Assembly: GCF_041886205.1 (NCBI RefSeq)
Contig: NZ_CP169029.1
Reading direction: 5' to 3' (one strand)
Origin: Escherichia coli
GTDB taxonomy: Bacteria; Pseudomonadota; Gammaproteobacteria; Enterobacterales; Enterobacteriaceae
DNA: 64,000 nt
Under the pieces are notes generated by a model. The model did no database searches. It saw nothing but the letters and a program-made list of their open reading frames with translations, and was not told the origin of the DNA. This document shows, in pieces, positions 12,978-21,265 of this stretch; positions within the stretch are counted from its first letter, which is position 1; every line of letters begins with the position of its first letter. The position numbers and the translations under genes are program-made.

Positions 12978-13307
12978 GAAAAGCCGCAGGGCGTCAACCG
13001 AAAAATGACCACTGATGGTGAGGAAAAATCAGGGAAGTTGAAATTTTTTCATCTGAAGAAAAAAACAGGGATACCAATGTTCAGTATGAGGTGAATATTG
13101 GGAAAATGCTGACGTTATTAATTTTATATTTATTTAAATGATGATTCATTCTGATTTATTTACTTAAAAAATGAATTATATTTTCAAATAAAACAAAAAG
13201 ATACTTTAAGCCTCTCCGGCCTCCTCGCTTTTAATTTTGAACCACTTCAAACAAATAATAAATTCCTAAGAATTAAGTTGCAGACAAATTATACATCCCT
13301 CACGATA

Positions 13308-13335
13308 AGTAGAACGTTCTAGTAGAACGTTCTAC
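13308..13335. promoter_or_regulatory. Tandem palindromic operator-like site upstream of the PTS gene
   Basis: aagtagaacgttctagtagaacgttctact: two abutting copies of a palindrome centred on CG (TAGAACGTTCTA); the second copy is a perfect 16-bp palindrome AGTAGAACGTTCTACT; lies about 55 bp upstream of the PTS start codon. Confidence 0.5.
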
Positions 13336-13389
13336 TTATATAAATAATCGTTCTTGCGCAGTCATCTGCGCTATTCGGGGGAAATCAGC

Positions 13390-14889
13390 ATGGGTCTGAT
13401 ATCGAGTGTCGTAAAATCACTTTCTAAACTGTCGATGATTGGTCGCGCGCTGATGCTGCCAATTTCGCTTCTGCCTGCCGCCGGGTTGTTACTGGCGTTC
13501 GGCGATAAATTCCACATGCCGTTGATGATGAATGCCGGCGGTATCATTTTTGATAACTTGCCGATGCTTTTTGCTATCGGTTCTGCCGTGGGACTGGCTT
13601 CAGAATCGGGTATTGCGGCGCTATCCGCAGCTGTATCCGTCTTTGTCACTAATATCACCATCGGTACTGTCCTTGGCATCACACCAGAGATGGCCGGGCA
13701 AGGCGGTAAATATGCGATGGTGGTGGGGATCCCAACGCTGCAAATGGGCGTCTTCGGCGGCCTGATATGCGGGGTTCTGGCGGCGTGGTGTTACAACCGT
13801 TTTCATACCATGCAATTACCAGAATTCCTTGGCTTTTTCTCCGGCAAACGCTTCGTGGCTATCGCGACGGCTTTTCTTTCCTTCATCCTTGGCTTGTTAC
13901 TGCCCTATGTCTGGCAACATATTCAGTCGGGAATCGATGCCCTATCAGTTATCGTCAATGGTGATAACCAGGCGGCATCGACCTTTATTTTTGGTGTGAC
14001 AGAACGTGCGCTCATTCCGCTTGGCCTGCACCACATCTGGTATCCATCGTTCTGGTACTCTTTTGGTGATTACACCACCCAGGCAGGCCAAATGATCCAC
14101 GGTGACCAAACAATTTGGTTCAAAATGCTGGAAGAAGGTGTGAAATCGTTCAGTAGCGACAGCTACCATAACGCGGGTAAGTTTTTACAGGGCGAGTTTC
14201 CGCTCATGCTGTTCGCGCTGCCTGCGGCGTGTCTGGCGATGTACCATGAAGCACACACCAAAAATAAGAAAATTGCCGCCGGTATTCTGTTCTCTGCCGC
14301 ATTAACCTGTTTCCTGACAGGTATTACAGAACCCGTTGAATTTACCTTTATTTTCGTGGCACCGGTACTGTACGTATTTAACGCGATAATGGCTGGCCTC
14401 TCCTATATGGCGATGTATCTGCTCCATGCCCACATTGCAAAATCCTTCTCGGCAGGGCTTATCGATTATATTTCGTTTGGCATCCTGCCATCATTTAACG
14501 GCTACGAAACCAACTTCCTGAGTGCCATTATTGTTGGCGTACCGATGGCGATTATCTATTACTTCACTTTCCGCTTTGTTATTCGCCGTTTTGATGTGAA
14601 AACACCGGGTCGAGCCGAAAGCACTGTATCCGCTAACGATAAAACCGATGATGAACTGGCTACGGAAATTATCAGTCTGCTGGGCGGCCAACAAAATATC
14701 TCTTCCGTCGCATCCTGCATAACGCGCCTGCGTCTGGAAGTGGCGGATAAAGATGTGGTTGATAAAGATGGACTGAACAATGTCGGTGCTCGTGGTGTGG
14801 TTTTCGTCGGCGAGAACGGCATTCAGGTGATTTTTGGCGCACGTGCACAATTTATCGCGCAAACCATGTCGACGATGATTGGCAAATAG
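13390..14889 (+). CDS. PTS glucose-family EIICB permease (substrate unknown)
   Basis: ORF-track entry 13354..14889; start placed at ATG 13390 (GGGGG 8 nt upstream). Multi-TM EIIC domain followed by an EIIB domain with the phospho-Cys motif SVASCITRLRLEV. Confidence 0.8.
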   Translation: MGLISSVVKSLSKLSMIGRALMLPISLLPAAGLLLAFGDKFHMPLMMNAGGIIFDNLPMLFAIGSAVGLASESGIAALSAAVSVFVTNITIGTVLGITPEMAGQGGKYAMVVGIPTLQMGVFGGLICGVLAAWCYNRFHTMQLPEFLGFFSGKRFVAIATAFLSFILGLLLPYVWQHIQSGIDALSVIVNGDNQAASTFIFGVTERALIPLGLHHIWYPSFWYSFGDYTTQAGQMIHGDQTIWFKMLEEGVKSFSSDSYHNAGKFLQGEFPLMLFALPAACLAMYHEAHTKNKKIAAGILFSAALTCFLTGITEPVEFTFIFVAPVLYVFNAIMAGLSYMAMYLLHAHIAKSFSAGLIDYISFGILPSFNGYETNFLSAIIVGVPMAIIYYFTFRFVIRRFDVKTPGRAESTVSANDKTDDELATEIISLLGGQQNISSVASCITRLRLEVADKDVVDKDGLNNVGARGVVFVGENGIQVIFGARAQFIAQTMSTMIGK

Positions 14890-14962
14890 TCATAAGATTA
14901 CGCTTTGTTGGAGGTTCTGGTCCCTGACTGGAACCTTCGTGCTTATTGTTCAGGGAGTGAAT

Positions 14963-15979
14963 TTGAAGAAAGTCAGCATAATTGATGTTGCCAAAAGCGC
15001 AGGAGTCTCAGTCTCTACTGTGTCGCTGGTCCTGCGCCAGAAAGGCAAAATTTCCGAGGCAACCATCGAGAAAGTTCATGCTGCCATTACTGAGCTTGGC
15101 TACGTGCATAATGTTGCCGCCGCCAATTTACGCTCCAACACTTCAAATCTTATCGGTCTGATTTTACGTGATTTTAGCGATAGCTTTTCCATCAAAGTGA
15201 TGGCAAGTATTGTTCAGGAACTGGAAGCACAAGGATATATGGTGTTCCTCGGGCAACCACAAAACGAGCATGAACATCTTGAACGCTGTTTGCTTTCCTT
15301 CAAGCAACAAGGTGTTGCCGGAGTGATTTATCTGGCTTCCGATGCGCAGCGTGAAACCTTACCTGGGCTGATTCGCCAGTGCCCTCTTCCTCTTGTCGTC
15401 ACCTCACAATCCCCCATCAAAGATGAATGCAATCTGGTATTGCGCGACAACCAGCAGGCGGCAAGCCTTGCCGCGCGTTATTTAATTGAGCGTGGACATC
15501 GTTACATTGCCTACCTCGGCGGCAGAGAAAGCGATCTTATCCGCCAACAGCGACTGGTGGGTTTTCGCCAGACCCTGGCAAAATTCGGTATTGCCAGTCG
15601 TGACGAGTTCACGCCAGCCTGTGACGATGATACATACGCCGCCAGCATGGCCACGCGCCAGTTGTTGGAGAATAACAATGCTATCACCGCCCTACTCTGC
15701 CATTCGCCCGAGGCCATGATTGGCAGCATCAACGGCATACATCAGGTGGGGCGCACCGTCGGGAGAGACATCTTTCTGACCCAGCAGGTGGCGCTAATTG
15801 GTTTTGAGGATATGCTGCACATCAACCTGACCTCTCCCGTTTTCACCTATGTCTCTTCCGCCAGTGAAGAAACCGGACGCCAGGCCGCTAATCTGATAAT
15901 CCGCAAATTAAAAGACCCGGAGCTGCAAATTCAAAGAATTGCGCTTTCGGGGCAACTGGTAGTGCGGGAATCGGCGTAA
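14963..15979 (+). CDS. LacI/GalR-family transcriptional regulator
   Basis: ORF-track entry 14879..15979; N-terminal HTH KKVSIIDVAKSAGVSVSTVSLVL followed by a periplasmic-binding-protein-like effector domain; start tentatively TTG 14963 (AGGGAG 5 nt upstream), start codon uncertain. Confidence 0.75.
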   Translation: MKKVSIIDVAKSAGVSVSTVSLVLRQKGKISEATIEKVHAAITELGYVHNVAAANLRSNTSNLIGLILRDFSDSFSIKVMASIVQELEAQGYMVFLGQPQNEHEHLERCLLSFKQQGVAGVIYLASDAQRETLPGLIRQCPLPLVVTSQSPIKDECNLVLRDNQQAASLAARYLIERGHRYIAYLGGRESDLIRQQRLVGFRQTLAKFGIASRDEFTPACDDDTYAASMATRQLLENNNAITALLCHSPEAMIGSINGIHQVGRTVGRDIFLTQQVALIGFEDMLHINLTSPVFTYVSSASEETGRQAANLIIRKLKDPELQIQRIALSGQLVVRESA

Positions 15980-16052
15980 TACAAATGCCGAATGAGATGT
16001 ACGTCGATATCGTCATCCGGCAATAAGGTGTAAACCAACTTAATGCGTATGA

Positions 16053-17606
16053 TTACTTGATATCCTTCACGCGCATACCGTTGAGCTGTTCATCCGTGAT
16101 GGTGTTACCCGCTTTGAAGTAATCAACCACGGCGTGATAAACATAATAACCGCCGGTTGTGTTGCGCGCCTGACCCTCGGTAAATGCGGTAAAACCATCT
16201 CCACCATCAGCAAGGAAACTCTGGGTGGCAATAGAATAAACTGTCGCATCTTCAATGGGTTTGCCATTCAGAGTCAGTGTGATTACCCGCTGACCAACCA
16301 GTTTGCTGCTGTCGTACTTCATTTCCAGGCCTTTCGATACCTGTAAAACGCCATTACTTAAACTTGCGCCGTGTTCCATCAAACTGCGTAATTGTTTACC
16401 CGTGAGTTCCATCGTCACCAGTTCGTTGGGGAACGGGAAGGTACTGATGACGCCGCCCATCGTAATCGCCCCTGCGGGGATCTCATTGCGAATACCACCA
16501 GAGTTGGTTAACGCCAATTGGGTGTTTTTACCCGCCGCTACCAGTAAAGCGTCCGCCGCCAGGTTCCCGAGGGAAGCCGATTCACCATAGGCACGTTTTA
16601 ATTCAACCGGCGACTGCGCCACCGTTTGTTGCACCACTTCATCAAGCTTTTTATTCCAGCCGTCGATTACCTGTTTCGTTTGCGGATCGGGCTTCCACTC
16701 GTCGGCGTAAATGGTTTTAAGCTCGAAGTTTTTCACCGTAAAATCATGCGGCTTCTCTTTGTAGTCGAGAACCAGTTTGCCCACATCAATCCCGCCGCTG
16801 TCAGTGGAAAGGATGAGTGTATTGCCGACTTTAATCGGTTCCGGCGTACCCACATGTGCATGTCCGGTGATCAAAATATCCAGCCCTTTCACCTGACTTG
16901 CCGTCTGGATATCTTTATCCAACGCGCGACGCACATCCGTGCCTCCCATACTGGACTGGCGGGCCGGAACACCTTCGTGGATCAGGGCGACGGTTAGATC
17001 AACCTTGCCTTTGAGTTCATCGATATAACGTTGTAGCCATTTAATTTCATCGCGCGCTTCAATACCCACGCGCGTGGCAGCAGATACCGTATCGTTGAAG
17101 GCAAATACGCCGTGCAAACCTATAACGCCAATTTTCACGCCGTCTTTTTCGATGATGGTATATGGCTTATCCCAGAATGATTTACTGCTGTTCTGATAAA
17201 AAACATTGCCCTGCACAATAGGGAATTTTGCCTGACTCAACTGTAATAATGTGTTGTCCCAGCCGTGGTCAAATTCATGGTTGCCTATCGTGACGGCATC
17301 AAACGGCATAGTATTCATAATATCGATAATAGCCTTACCTTTGGTCAGGCTGCTGATATAGGGCCCGGTAAAATAATCACCCGCATCAAAAAACCATGTC
17401 GCTTTATTTTTTGCTTTTTCTTGCTTAACCAGCGTAGTGATATTTGCCCAGCCGCCAATATCCCGTTTACCGTCAGCGATCCACGGCACTTTATAAGGCT
17501 CGACATGCGCATGGAGGTCGTTGGTATAAATGATGGTGACATCTTTGGCGCAAGCCCAGAACGGCAATGTTAATGCGATACCCGCAGCAAGTATTTTAAT
17601 TTTCAT
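16053..17606 (-). CDS. Secreted bifunctional metallophosphoesterase / 5'-nucleotidase (UshA-like)
   Basis: 517-aa ORF with signal peptide [20 protein letters not shown]; calcineurin-like motifs DLHAH, GDYF, GNHEFD, GHAH, then a 5'-nucleotidase C-terminal-type domain. Confidence 0.75.
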
Positions 17607-17738
17607 AAATAGTCCCTTTCAGTGATTTAAAGGATTGCTACATTACGTTCTGAAAGAGTTATTTATGTGAGAGTAATCACATCCGCAGGGGATAGTTGCC
17701 GGACAAAATCAACGACCTTGTGAAATCGTTGGTGATAT

Positions 17739-18869
17739 ATGTCGACTCTGTTTACGATTAATGCCTGCAAGTCGTTTGGTTGCCGTAATTTAGGGCAACC
17801 AACATCGACAGATTACAGCTGGCCAGACTATCGACTGGGTTATCCGGCACTGCACTGTCGGGCATGTGGAAGTTACCCGCCTTTGTTTGACGAACAGCAA
17901 TTTCGTGACTGGCTGTCAGTTCACTTATCTACTTTTGCAACTGAGAAAGGTCATTTCTGCCCGGTATGTTATGGCACAAAGACGATTTGTTATGGCCACA
18001 ATCCACAGGGGTCGCAACGCATTCAATGTCGTAACTGCAAAAAAGTCTGGACACCTAAACAATATCAGAAAGAAATAACGCCTCCTGAAATAATCGAAAC
18101 GGTTGCTCTTCTGGTGCCATTTCAGGGAGCCAGCAATGGGCAGAAACTGTATGTTTTAATCAGTTTTGATGCTCTTCGCGGTAATATTCTTCATCTTTCT
18201 ACTAATTACACGCAGCATCAGGCTGGAGAAAGTCTGCATTATCGATACAGAGGAAATGCAGAACCAGAGTTACACGAGAGTAATATTGTACAACGCGTTG
18301 ATATGCGCGAAGCACAATTTCTACGCCGCAGTCAGTTTGATGAAATTCAGTATGGCAGCGCAGCGCTCAAACGCAATGCTAAAGGTGTTATTCTGCGTCC
18401 GGTTATCACTGCACACGGGCATTTCAGAGTACTGAATATTTTATTCCCTACAGTAAAAACACATGTAATTTCACACGAGTGTTTTTTAAGAGGTGCCATT
18501 ATTACGGCATGGGCTGATCTTTTTCGCCAACAGCAAGGTGAGATTTGGTTTATTGAAGAGGAAATAGCTGACTATACCGATAATATGCCCTGGAGTTTTC
18601 AGGGAACAACTTATCACGGCTGGTGGAAAAATCAGTGGCAACTTTGGGTTCAGGGCAAAAATCGTAAAATGGTATGTGCATTAACAGGCGGAAATAACAG
18701 CAAAGCTGAAATGCTCTCTTTCGCAACCAGCAGACATTTTATCGACTGGCTACATAAACAAGCAGTATTTACTCACAGCACCCCGCTTTCCGCAGGGCGC
18801 GTTACGCAAATACTGCTTTCTCTGGCTCAGGATTACAACAACTGCGCCAGCCGGTTGATATCCGACTGA
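17739..18869 (+). CDS. Hypothetical protein with N-terminal Cys-rich zinc-ribbon-like motifs; function unknown
   Basis: 376-aa ORF; four CxxC pairs in the first ~100 aa (HCRACGS, CPVCYG, CRNCKK); lower GC than neighbours; 3' end overlaps the metL 3' end by 37 bp on the opposite strand. Confidence 0.5.
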   Translation: MSTLFTINACKSFGCRNLGQPTSTDYSWPDYRLGYPALHCRACGSYPPLFDEQQFRDWLSVHLSTFATEKGHFCPVCYGTKTICYGHNPQGSQRIQCRNCKKVWTPKQYQKEITPPEIIETVALLVPFQGASNGQKLYVLISFDALRGNILHLSTNYTQHQAGESLHYRYRGNAEPELHESNIVQRVDMREAQFLRRSQFDEIQYGSAALKRNAKGVILRPVITAHGHFRVLNILFPTVKTHVISHECFLRGAIITAWADLFRQQQGEIWFIEEEIADYTDNMPWSFQGTTYHGWWKNQWQLWVQGKNRKMVCALTGGNNSKAEMLSFATSRHFIDWLHKQAVFTHSTPLSAGRVTQILLSLAQDYNNCASRLISD

Positions 18870-21265
18870 ATCGCCCCGGCGGTGACATCGCGCCCTGCGC
18901 CTGGTCCGCGGATCACCAGCGGGTTATCGCGATACCAGCGGCTTTCGATGGCAAAGACGTTATCGCACGGCAGCAGTGATGCCAGCGGATGGTCTTCACG
19001 CACCGCTTCCACGCCCACACGCGCTTTGCCATTGGCATCGAAACGCGCCACGTAGCGCAGCACCAGCCCCATTTCGCGGGCCGCTTCCAGCCGTTGCACC
19101 ATCTGCTCGTTCAGTTCATCGCCATTTTCAAAGAAATGGTCGATGCTGCCGCCTTCGCAATGGGCAGGCACCAGCGATTCAACGCGCACCTGATCCGGTT
19201 CGATGTCGTAACCCGCTTCACGCGCCAGAATCACCAGCTTGCGCATCACGTCTTTGCCGGAAAGGTCATCACGCGGGTCAGGTTCGGTTAAGCCCTGCTG
19301 CCACGCCTGATCCACCAGCTCGGTAAACGGCACGCTACCGTCGAATTGCAGGAACAGCCAGGAGAGCGTGCCAGAGAAGATCCCGCTGATCGACAAAATA
19401 GTATCGCCGCTATCGATCAGATCGCGCACGGTATGGTTGATCGGCAAGCCCGCACCGACGGTGGCATTGTACAGCCAGTGACGCCCGGTTTTTTCGAAGG
19501 CGTCGTGGATCTGGCGATATTTATTGCTGTCGCTGGCTCCTGCCAGTTTGTTGGCGCTAATGACGTGGAAACCGTGGCTGGCGAAATCGAGATACTGGTC
19601 AGCAAGCTGCTGGCTGGCGGTAACGTCCAGCACCACTAAATCATCATACGGATGGGCGCGCATCCACAGGAACAGCGACTCTTCATCCTGCTCGACCGCT
19701 TCATCGTTGAAGAAGGCTAACGCGCGGCTGGCGTCCAGCCCGTCATAACTCAACAGGCTACGGCGGCTGTCCACCACACCTGCCAGCACAAATTCAAAGC
19801 CGGTACGCGCCGAAAGCGTGCTCTGCTCACGGGCGAACAGTTCCAGCCAGCGGGAACCGATATTGCCCTTGCCGAACAATACCAGGCCGATGCGTTTTTC
19901 CGCGCGGAAGACGGACTGATGCAGCCCCTGAATCAGGCTTTCGGTCGGGCCGGTGCGCAGTACTGCCACCAGGCTGATGCCGTCATCGGACTGCCAGGTA
20001 AACTCGACCGGCTGGCCTTTCAGTTGCTGCCAGAAGCGGTGGCAATGCAGCGGGTTACGGGTGACACCCGCCCCGACCATCGCCACTAGCGCCAGCCCCT
20101 GACGCAGGCGCAGTTCGCCAGGTAATCCCGCTTCGTCGAGAATTTTCAGCGCACTGTCAGCGACTTCTGAGGTGTAGCAAAATTGCAGCAACTGGCGATC
20201 GTTATGCACGCCAACCGCCAGTGGGCGCACCTGAGCACGTTTCAGGATCTGGTCGATCTCTTTATGCGCCAGTTTGAAATCCTGGCTGGCGGGCACCTGA
20301 AACTCAATCAAGCAGACATCATCGTGGCTGGTGACAATACGCGCTCCAGTACCGGAGGCCAGCACGCGTTCAATGCGCGTGGAACCTTGATCCGGCGTGT
20401 AGCTACAGCGCAGCTGCAGGTCGATTTCGCTGCCAGAAACCGGCTGTAAAGTACGGGCGTGAAGAACGGGAGCCGCCAGACGCGCCAGTTCGCTGGCTTC
20501 ATCCAGACGCAGCAACGGTAGCAGGCAGGCATCTTTCACTTTACGCGGGTCGGCACTGTATACCCCGGCGACGTCGCTCCAGATGGTTACACGAGAAACA
20601 CCCGCCAGCGCACCGATTTGTGTCGCGGAATAGTCGGAACCGTTACGCCCCAGCAGCACCGTTTCACCGGCGTTGTTACGGCTGATAAACCCGGTCACCA
20701 CCAGACGTTTGCCCGGATGTTGCACCAGTAGCTGTTGCAGCAACGGGTAAGAAAGCCCTTCATCAACCTGCGGTTGCGCAGCGCGTTCAGCGCGTAAAAA
20801 CTCGCGGGCATCAAGCCAGGCCGCTGACAGCCCTTGTTGATTAAGCACCGCAGACATCAGGCGTGCCGACCATACTTCCCCGTGGCCCACCACTTCCGCA
20901 TACACCGCGTCGTTAATACCGCTGTCGAGCAGCGCCGCCAGGCGCTCAAGATCGCTGACAAAAGCGCTAATGAGGCTATCGGCTTCTTCAGCGGGTAACA
21001 GACCGCTAATCAGATCGCACTGATAGCGACGCAGCGTTTGTTGAACCTGATGCGCAGAGAGACGATCGGTCTGGCTTAGTTTCAACCAGTTAATCAACTG
21101 GTTAGTGGTGCTACCGGCGGCGGAAACCACCATCATATCGTCAGGCTGAGAGTACTCCGCCATAATGCCCGCGACACGCAAATAACACTTCACATCAGCC
21201 AGACTACTGCCACCAAATTTATGCAGTTGACGACCTTTCGCCCCTGCCTGCGCAATCACACTCAT
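18833..21265 (-). CDS. metL: Bifunctional aspartokinase II / homoserine dehydrogenase II
   Basis: 810-aa ORF MSVIAQAGAKGRQLHKFGGSSLADVKCYLRVAGIMAEY. Confidence 0.95.
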   Translation of the reverse strand: MSVIAQAGAKGRQLHKFGGSSLADVKCYLRVAGIMAEYSQPDDMMVVSAAGSTTNQLINWLKLSQTDRLSAHQVQQTLRRYQCDLISGLLPAEEADSLISAFVSDLERLAALLDSGINDAVYAEVVGHGEVWSARLMSAVLNQQGLSAAWLDAREFLRAERAAQPQVDEGLSYPLLQQLLVQHPGKRLVVTGFISRNNAGETVLLGRNGSDYSATQIGALAGVSRVTIWSDVAGVYSADPRKVKDACLLPLLRLDEASELARLAAPVLHARTLQPVSGSEIDLQLRCSYTPDQGSTRIERVLASGTGARIVTSHDDVCLIEFQVPASQDFKLAHKEIDQILKRAQVRPLAVGVHNDRQLLQFCYTSEVADSALKILDEAGLPGELRLRQGLALVAMVGAGVTRNPLHCHRFWQQLKGQPVEFTWQSDDGISLVAVLRTGPTESLIQGLHQSVFRAEKRIGLVLFGKGNIGSRWLELFAREQSTLSARTGFEFVLAGVVDSRRSLLSYDGLDASRALAFFNDEAVEQDEESLFLWMRAHPYDDLVVLDVTASQQLADQYLDFASHGFHVISANKLAGASDSNKYRQIHDAFEKTGRHWLYNATVGAGLPINHTVRDLIDSGDTILSISGIFSGTLSWLFLQFDGSVPFTELVDQAWQQGLTEPDPRDDLSGKDVMRKLVILAREAGYDIEPDQVRVESLVPAHCEGGSIDHFFENGDELNEQMVQRLEAAREMGLVLRYVARFDANGKARVGVEAVREDHPLASLLPCDNVFAIESRWYRDNPLVIRGPGAGRDVTAGAIQSDINRLAQLL

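Follow-up and report, generated by a model that had tools for sequence, protein, structure and literature searches.

The stretch of Escherichia coli DNA analysed here (contig NZ_CP169029.1 of assembly GCF_041886205.1; 64,000 nucleotides, hereafter the window) carries next to metL an open reading frame (ORF) of 376 codons and, divergent from it, a 5'-nucleotidase gene. The product of the ORF, WP_000105528.1, is labelled 'hypothetical protein' or 'cytoplasmic protein' in RefSeq, and no publication on it was found by accession, locus tag or topic. A preliminary description had proposed a Cys-rich zinc-ribbon protein, with a domesticated transposase, a nucleic-acid-binding regulator and a defence-related protein as options. 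We favour, with some reserve, a domesticated IS1-type transposase that would act as a CRP-linked regulator of nucleotide scavenging. The main features of the locus are:

13044..18831, no strand: accessory island absent from K-12, with a phosphotransferase system (PTS) EIIBC gene, a MalI-like regulator, the nucleotidase and the ORF
16053..17606, minus strand: 5'-nucleotidase of the metallophosphatase type, 517 aa, with an apparent signal peptide, divergent partner of the ORF, essentially identical to PDB 3ivd/3ive
17607..17738, no strand: divergent intergenic region of 132 bp, highly conserved among 35 distinct enterobacterial sequences
17739..18869, plus strand: the ORF, ATG start, 376 aa, encoding the putative transposase-derived protein WP_000105528.1; supported by orthologues and substitution rates

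A conserved gene in a nucleotide-scavenging neighbourhood

The reading frame of 376 codons with its ATG start is borne out. Full-length orthologues with 57-94% identity are found across many enterobacterial genera (Escherichia, Pseudocitrobacter, Citrobacter, Klebsiella, Enterobacter, Kluyvera, Kosakonia, Phytobacter, Pluralibacter and others), and the pairwise ratio of nonsynonymous to synonymous substitution rates (dN/dS) between the ORF and its orthologues is 0.08-0.18, with synonymous sites saturated between the enterobacterial genera compared. On the strength of these orthologues and ratios, sequence comparison identifies the ORF as a real gene under purifying selection and not a chance reading frame. 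The same data speak against a decayed gene fragment, one of the outcomes that the preliminary description had named as its refutation. Its impression of a low guanine-cytosine (GC) content also holds, as the ORF has 44.5% GC (37.6% at third codon positions, GC3) below the values of metL (58.5%) and of the whole window (51.6%).

The island-specific part of the ORF is carried by 1744 of 5426 complete E. coli genomes (about 32%), O25b:H4-ST131 and an avian pathogenic E. coli (APEC) O2:K1:H5 strain among them. The median E. coli genome has it in one place, no genome has more than two copies, and the window contains a single member of the family. A family profile searched against 1.84 billion cluster representatives returned 140 representatives at E<=1e-3; judged from this sequence search, the family is small. 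Neither Pfam nor NCBIfam has a model of its main domain, and its labels are inconsistent ('cytoplasmic protein', 'hypothetical protein', 'IS1 family transposase').

We found the 5'-nucleotidase gene adjacent in 67 of 72 loci, the remaining ones being truncated contigs, so that the check on neighbourhood conservation suggested beforehand gave a clear positive answer. The neighbouring enzymes have about 517-520 aa, Metallophos and 5_nucleotid_C domains and an apparent signal peptide. The nucleotidase is divergent across a spacer of about 133 bp in 44 of the 72 loci, all enterobacterial; three of these (L012, L077, L011) are deep-branching or duplicate and stand outside the crown-clade set. Another 23 loci, from Vibrio, Photobacterium, Aliivibrio, Enterovibrio, Thaumasiovibrio and Psychromonas, have the nucleotidase directly upstream and co-directional, some 15-50 bp off. 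In Enterobacter and Klebsiella the pair of ORF and nucleotidase is found elsewhere in the genome, in a locus that likewise includes Tsx and a second nucleotidase.

Sister subfamilies point in the same metabolic direction. One is divergent from a deoB-deoD-nupG-like operon, another from tal-add-deoC-deoA-deoB beside a Bmp-type ABC transporter, and further loci are divergent from nupC-deoC-deoA-deoB and tal-nupC-deoC. The gene is therefore encoded beside its presumed targets, either divergently or in the same operon. The option of a defence-related protein found no support: PADLOC gave no match on the ORF (0 families), and the neighbours are nucleotide-scavenging genes in a metabolic context and not a defence island.

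Protein architecture and transposase ancestry

Four segments can be distinguished in the protein:

17760..17873, plus strand: zinc ribbon 1, residues 8-45 (C10, C15, C40, C43), family-specific; from conserved columns and the structural model
17952..18056, plus strand: zinc ribbon 2, residues 72-106 (C74, C77, C97, C100), of the IS1 InsA type; hhalign 96.6%, E 5e-10, at family level
18084..18839, plus strand: predicted RNase H-like domain (DDE transposase/integrase fold), residues ~116-367; from predicted structure and alignment
18840..18869, plus strand: C-terminal tail, residues 368-376 and stop, unconserved, antisense to the last metL codons

The two Cys-rich zinc ribbons reported earlier stand, with a corrected spacing: instead of four CxxC pairs there are one CxxxxC (C10/C15) and three CxxC (C40/43, C74/77, C97/100). 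Seven of the eight Cys show no or almost no variation in the family; C74 does not vary within the enteric clade. Aligned with residues 4-88 of IS1 InsAB', which comprise the InsA zinc ribbon and helix-turn-helix (HTH), the family profile reached an hhalign probability of 96.6% (E 5e-10), and the alignment was repeated against an IS1 alignment. Also, Pfam Zn_ribbon_InsA (PF03811) matches 7 of 54 members at E<=1e-3, and this protein falls below threshold for the InsA ribbon (NF050000, 21.3 bits; cut-off 28). Searches of Pfam, NCBIfam, PHROGs and the PDB with the single sequence returned sub-threshold zinc-ribbon matches only and no solved homologue. The PDB profile matches were Cys-rich C2H2 zinc-finger proteins aligned over the Cys-rich N-terminus, and they were rejected.

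Most full-length relatives have 400-570 aa, compared with 376 aa here. Their extra segment of about 45-55 residues, between zinc ribbon 2 and the C-terminal domain, is an InsA-like HTH, and according to both alignment and model it is missing from this protein and from the whole crown Enterobacteriaceae clade. In the predicted structure zinc ribbon 2 leads directly into beta-1. The crown clade is thus secondarily HTH-less, the HTH having been lost.

The AlphaFold model built with a 99-sequence alignment has a predicted local distance difference test score (pLDDT) of 93.8 and a predicted template modelling score (pTM) of 0.93; with 15 close homologues only, the pLDDT is 42. From this model we are confident that residues ~116-367 adopt an RNase H-like transposase/integrase fold, and no Pfam family covers the C-terminal domain in any of the 54 members. 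The centre of beta-1 is T121 (42 of the 54 members have T in this column and 9 have S), and R220-P221 come after beta-4. A check for conserved D/E catalytic residues, which the preliminary description had advised, shows both Asp positions lost: neither beta-1 nor the stretch after beta-4 has an acidic residue that is conserved in the 54-member alignment, and an intact D-D-E triad on the RNase H-like fold is absent. H246-E247, both nearly invariant, lie at the N-terminus of the helix after beta-5, where integrases have their catalytic Glu. R197 and H228 do not vary at all. Equivalence of active-site residues was assigned by the order of secondary-structure elements and not by superposed coordinates; read in this way, the model has both catalytic Asp replaced (by T121 and by R220-P221) and DDE catalysis disabled.

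Regarding mobility, the ORF is single and uninterrupted over its 376 codons and conserved from M1, without the two-frame layout of a -1 frameshift, and no terminal inverted repeats like those of an insertion sequence (IS) flank it. Synteny is fixed, with the same neighbour in 67 of 72 loci, and conserved across two bacterial families. NCBIfam IS1 model NF033558 gives 21 bits on this protein and reaches model positions 130-140 in two relatives at about 30 bits (cut-off 100). The head and the fold are both of transposase type, and taking alignment and model together we conclude that the protein is transposase-derived, non-mobile and catalytically disabled, at least for DDE chemistry. The idea of a domesticated transposase-like protein is upheld by the InsA-type ribbon and the RNase H-like fold. 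Its proposed IS1595 affiliation is not, since Zn_ribbon_IS1595 is matched just at E<=0.1 in 5 of 54 members and DDE_Tnp_IS1595 in none. Membership failed for the IS1 and IS1595 families alike, and the protein is best described as part of a new transposase-derived family.

A conserved motif in fixed register with a CRP site

The spacer between the ORF and the nucleotidase gene stays conserved between genera whose synonymous sites are saturated. Its elements in the window are:

17643..17656, no strand: conserved block TTACGTTCTGAAAG, between the CRP site and the nucleotidase start
17666..17681, no strand: perfect CRP-consensus site TGTGAgagtaaTCACA at the spacer centre, centred at 17673.5
17707-17714: ATCAACGA, partner half-site of the candidate operator
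17714..17733, minus strand: candidate operator remnant, reading ACCAACGATTT on the nucleotidase strand and beginning exactly 52 bp upstream of the CRP site

The counterpart of ACCAACGATTT is the invariant block AAATCGTTGGT at 17723-17733, and further invariant blocks lie at 17643-17656 and 17615-17623. All 35 distinct enteric sequences have ACCAAC (17728-17733 in the window) at a distance of exactly 52 bp on the upstream side of the CRP site. Of the composite ACCAAC-N46-TGTGA-N6-TCACA, the window contains a single occurrence where 0.03 were expected.

A Gibbs search was trained on 21 upstream regions from Vibrionaceae and Psychromonas, and the other subfamilies were never in training. It returned a 20-bp motif, A[C/T]CAAC-w-CA-www-GG-w-AAC-T-y, scoring 17-26 bits in 20 of the 21 loci and lying, in most of them, between -127 and -149 relative to the ATG of the nucleotidase gene. 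A CRP-like site (<=3 mismatches) begins exactly 52 bp downstream of the motif in 19 of the 21. In the intergenic regions of untrained subfamilies the best matches of the matrix point toward the catabolic operon. Motif and CRP register recur there in four loci of three other subfamilies, to which a fifth, sub-significant locus (L073) can be added:

L083: motif 16.4 bits; CRP-like site at +52, 1 mismatch
L074 (P0153): motif 14.9 bits; CRP-like site at +52, 1 mismatch
L077 (P0138): motif 11.8 bits; CRP-like site at +51, 2 mismatches
L012 (P0123): motif 9.7 bits; CRP-like site at +52, 1 mismatch
L073 (P0141): motif 8.6 bits, shuffle p=0.07, below significance; CRP-like site at +52, 0 mismatches

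Two further loci of one of these subfamilies (L084, L085) have neither a significant motif match nor a CRP-like site at +52. The family is thus accompanied by a conserved cis-element at a fixed position, ACCAAC 52 bp from the CRP site.

The HTH-less enterobacterial clade keeps just the first 6-11 nt of the motif, ACCAACGATTT on the nucleotidase strand. The same clade lost the HTH of the protein and the 3' half of the motif, and this coincidence suggests that the HTH read the GGwAAC half and that the ribbons read the ACCAAC half.

Promoters of K-12, where the family is absent, served as a control. Both deo and udp have CRP-like sites in pairs, the upstream one at 53 and 52 bp respectively from the other; in cdd the upstream site is weaker (3 mismatches) and lies at 50 bp. 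At the 52-bp register of K-12 promoters the ACCAAC matrix scores -21 to -35. From this comparison the family motif sits approximately where K-12 promoters carry a second CRP-like site. Upstream of K-12 nupG (L092, offset 135) we noted ATCATCTCGCACGGTCAAAT, a weak motif-like word with 3.4 bits and 51 bp upstream of a CRP-like site, which is not significant but shares the register. Additionally, many Vibrionaceae loci (L049-L072) show a LacI/PurR-type palindrome (GCAAACGTTTGC, AAACGATTGC) near the CRP site; such palindromes lie about 60-110 bp upstream of the nucleotidase genes and suggest a further regulator.

Proposed mechanism

We propose that the protein would bind an operator beginning with ACCAAC (17714-17733, nucleotidase strand) in a fixed 52-bp register from the CRP site (17666-17681) and that, together with CRP bound to cyclic AMP (cAMP-CRP), it would set the transcription of the divergent periplasmic 5'-nucleotidase gene. 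It would probably regulate itself too, because the candidate operator lies 6-26 nt upstream of the ORF's own start codon. The dead RNase H-like domain could serve as an oligomerisation or ligand-sensing module. Class II promoters would fit on both sides of the CRP site (centre 17673.5), with predicted -10 elements TAATGT at 17645-17640 and the invariant CAAAAT at 17704-17709.

Salmonella enterica subsp. arizonae (L045 4921-5800) bears on the sign of this regulation. The nucleotidase (517 aa) and its CRP half-promoter are intact there, and a deletion runs from just past the CRP site to ORF codon ~125, removing the ORF's half of the promoter as well, with an additional internal stop. An intact nucleotidase beside a broken ORF argues against an obligatory activator or an immunity-type partner, and a modulator or repressor fits better with these sequences. 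Short Salmonella fragments of the ORF protein are also numerous in AFDB, suggesting repeated decay in Salmonella.

For the regulator option of the preliminary description, the comparative evidence of neighbourhood and conserved operator-CRP element is favourable, and a domesticated IS1-type transposase acting as a CRP-linked regulator of nucleotide scavenging is the reading to which we lean. More tentatively, and with slightly less than even confidence, we suggest that the family is an unrecognised group of transcription factors derived from IS1-like transposases. In this wider proposal the ACCAAC operator might replace the second CRP site of CytR-type promoters, and the dead RNase H-like domain might be re-used as a sensor or CRP-contacting module. 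The regulon might consist of periplasmic 5'-nucleotidases, deo, nupC/nupG and add in Enterobacteriaceae, Vibrionaceae and relatives.

Several points weigh against the regulator that we favour. DNA binding, the regulatory effect and the ligand are all inferred from sequence. The enteric protein, lacking the HTH, would have to bind DNA by its zinc ribbons alone. Applied to the enteric region, the Vibrio matrix gives 3.9 bits (p=0.13), and what is shared comes down to the first 6-11 nt and the register. The motif might be bound by another factor: it is loosely similar to the IHF consensus, and CytR-like words (GCAAC) occur in the spacer. Subfamily P0177/P0173 adjoins a radical-SAM gene and not nucleoside genes (P0177 loci have MatP upstream and, at one locus, a sulfatase beyond the radical-SAM gene). 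As for ancestry, the C-terminal domain is not detectably similar to the IS1 DDE domain (hhalign probability 0.2%): the comparison covered one IS1 sequence, an alignment of 14 sequences and profiles trimmed to the domain, and none of these aligned it, the IS1 homologue search having given close IS1 copies only. Also, Foldseek ranks PIWI, EndoV and NurA above transposases, and given this ranking the fold alone is not proof of transposase descent.

Alternative explanations

Two alternatives survive best, each of them unlikely. In the first, the ORF product would not be a transcription factor and would instead be a cytoplasmic partner of the nucleotidase, namely an inhibitor, an immunity-like protein or a chaperone acting before export. 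The older literature describes a cytoplasmic protein that inhibits E. coli 5'-nucleotidase. The almost universal adjacency of the two genes, their operonic arrangement in Vibrionaceae and the enteric clade without HTH would suit such a partner. Against it, sister subfamilies flank cytoplasmic deo/add/nupC operons without a secreted nucleotidase, the N-terminus is homologous to a DNA-binding module, and the conserved operator-CRP element travels with the family. Moreover, gene and partner are not maintained together in S. enterica subsp. arizonae, where the nucleotidase is intact and the ORF is N-terminally deleted and has a stop.

In the second, about equally improbable, the protein is still a regulator but ACCAAC is bound by IHF or CytR, and the protein acts elsewhere or through protein-protein contacts. 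The motif is loosely like WATCAANNNNTTR, GCAAC-like words occur in the 32-bp spacer, and the enteric protein has no HTH. These points are to be set against a motif of 17-26 bits, far above the IHF consensus, which co-occurs with the family across target operons and taxa and is absent at the equivalent register of K-12 CytR-type promoters.

Slightly less probable again is that the RNase H-like domain is still an enzyme, a nuclease or phosphotransferase with a non-canonical site formed by R197, H228, H246 and E247 and with nucleic acids or nucleotides as substrates in the cytoplasm; this proposal seems to us rather improbable. Polar residues are strongly conserved near the expected RNase H-type site and the Foldseek matches include the PIWI, EndoV and NurA nucleases, but the acidic residues expected on beta-1 and after beta-4 are not conserved, and a divergent gene that comes with a conserved operator and a CRP site typically encodes a regulator. 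The remaining idea, an active or recently decayed IS1-family insertion sequence gene and thus selfish DNA, draws on weak IS1 and InsA zinc-ribbon matches and on databases that call some Vibrio relatives 'IS1 family transposase', and it is highly improbable in view of the score of 21 bits against a cut-off of 100, a copy number of one without frameshift or terminal repeats, synteny across two bacterial families, purifying selection and the absent catalytic Asp.

The island, its junction with metL and other features

On the metF side, homology to K-12 extends to 13043; it is found again from 18832 onward, a single base ahead of the metL stop. These limits define the island as 13044-18831; it replaces 200 bp of K-12 spacer. 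The suspicion that the gene had been inserted right at the metL terminus is thereby supported. The metF-metL island exists in at least three E. coli variants with the nucleotidase and ORF pair as their constant core: ST131 (sequence type 131) has these two genes only; the window adds PTS EIIBC and the MalI-like regulator; and APEC O2:K1:H5 has the nucleotidase, the ORF, two further nucleotidases and a Tsx-like channel, without overlap with metL.

In the window, metL (18833..21265, minus strand) does overlap the ORF by 37 bp (18833-18869), as had been pointed out. The special meaning given to this overlap does not hold. The conserved protein core ends at N367 (18837-18839) and the tail differs between genera, so the overlap holds Y366/N367 and the unconserved residues 368-376 only. 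Other lineages have no overlap: Citrobacter freundii has a 35-bp gap before metL, and in the five-gene E. coli variant the two genes do not overlap. Since the junction lies at the metL stop, the tail is unconserved and other lineages lack the overlap, sequence comparison indicates that it is incidental, with an unconstrained tail reading through to the next stop. One more feature lies near this junction:

18760..18818, minus strand: strong hairpin just downstream of the metL stop, within the 3' coding region of the ORF; -42.8 kcal/mol, z -6.4

The hairpin has 27-nt arms, after which comes UUGUUUAU. In strains with the island it may act as the metBL terminator, because K-12's own terminator lies in the replaced 200 bp.

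Just upstream of the PTS EIIBC gene, at 13305-13339, lies a perfect palindrome with 17-bp arms, ATAAGTAGAACGTTCTA-T-TAGAACGTTCTACTTAT. It resembles a LacI-family operator and plausibly serves the adjacent MalI-like regulator (~14963-15979).

The spacer also contains a 7-bp inverted repeat, CTTTCAG at 17616-17622 and CTGAAAG at 17650-17656, the latter within the TTACGTTCTGAAAG block. The two arms flank the predicted nucleotidase -10 and start region, and an adjacent TTACGTT is nearly invariant. From its sequence, the repeat could be a second operator or a stem in the 5' untranslated region over the nucleotidase ribosome-binding site; with a class II transcription start, which is likely, the mRNA would lack the distal arm and could not form such a sequestering stem. 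Two other candidates were rejected. An RNA hairpin CAACGA/TCGTTG (17710-17731) has a left arm that varies without compensation and an invariant right arm. The AAATCGTTGGT 11-mer as reverse complement of nucleotidase T-N-D-L codons is inconsistent between loci and probably a coincidence; the match to these codons occurs in some nucleotidase paralogues (L005, L021, L023). Rfam gave no match in the intergenic region, and no second operator was found upstream of nuc2 in the five-gene island.

Some genomes have two paralogous copies of the ORF: E. coli SCPM-O-B-8794 (L016, L023; about 91% and 71% identity to the query) and Citrobacter sp. wls619 (L034, L043; 63% and 73%). In the two-copy genomes one copy is at metL and the other in a locus with two further nucleotidase genes. 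In E. coli ET201 (L011 1840-3747) an IS1B is inserted in the ORF, which RefSeq gives as two pseudogene halves; here a genuine IS1 broke its distant domesticated relative.

Comparison with known systems and significance

If the regulator that we favour is real, the family would govern scavenging in about a third of E. coli, extraintestinal pathogenic (ExPEC) lineages included. Periplasmic enzymes of the 5'-nucleotidase class yield nucleosides such as adenosine, which can affect nutrition and host responses. The case offers a testable candidate operator, a defined co-factor (CRP) and a target of solved structure (PDB 3ivd/3ive). Additionally, a correct description of the family would mend many inconsistent annotations, and the apparent metL overlap is accounted for as a harmless junction artefact.

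The nearest relatives by sequence are IS1 InsA/InsAB' (PF03811, HTH_Tnp_IS1 PF12759, DDE_Tnp_IS1 PF03400), with which the family shares the order of four-Cys ribbon, HTH and RNase H-like domain. InsA is a DNA-binding repressor acting at the IS1 ends. Unlike IS1, the ORF family has an extra N-terminal zinc ribbon, a single ORF without -1 frameshift and a C-terminal domain about twice the size, without detectable sequence similarity to the IS1 DDE domain. Both Asp of the triad and the inverted repeats are absent, the gene occurs once per genome in a syntenic position, and the HTH is gone here. Transposases of the IS1595/ISXO2 type also have an N-terminal zinc ribbon and then an RNase H-like domain, but IS1 InsA is the better match.

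Nuclease-dead regulators derived from transposons exist, such as the TnpB-derived TldR repressors and the domesticated-transposase transcription factors of eukaryotes. Like TldR-type regulators, the protein described here would be a mobile-element protein minus its catalysis, fixed as a host gene beside its presumed targets. In contrast to TldR, its ancestor would be of the DDE/IS1 type and not a RuvC-type TnpB, there is no guide RNA, and the recognition proposed is of DNA by protein, coupled to CRP. To our knowledge, clear domestications of DDE transposases into bacterial host regulators are rare.

The promoter arrangement recalls the CytR/CRP promoters (deoP2, cdd, udp, nupG, tsx), which have nucleoside and nucleotide scavenging targets, depend on CRP and have a further element some 52 bp upstream of the CRP site. 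In K-12 a second CRP site takes this distal position and LacI-type CytR is the specific regulator, whereas here the position is taken by the ACCAAC motif, and the protein associated with it derives from a transposase. In this sense, the likeness is one of function and not of homology.

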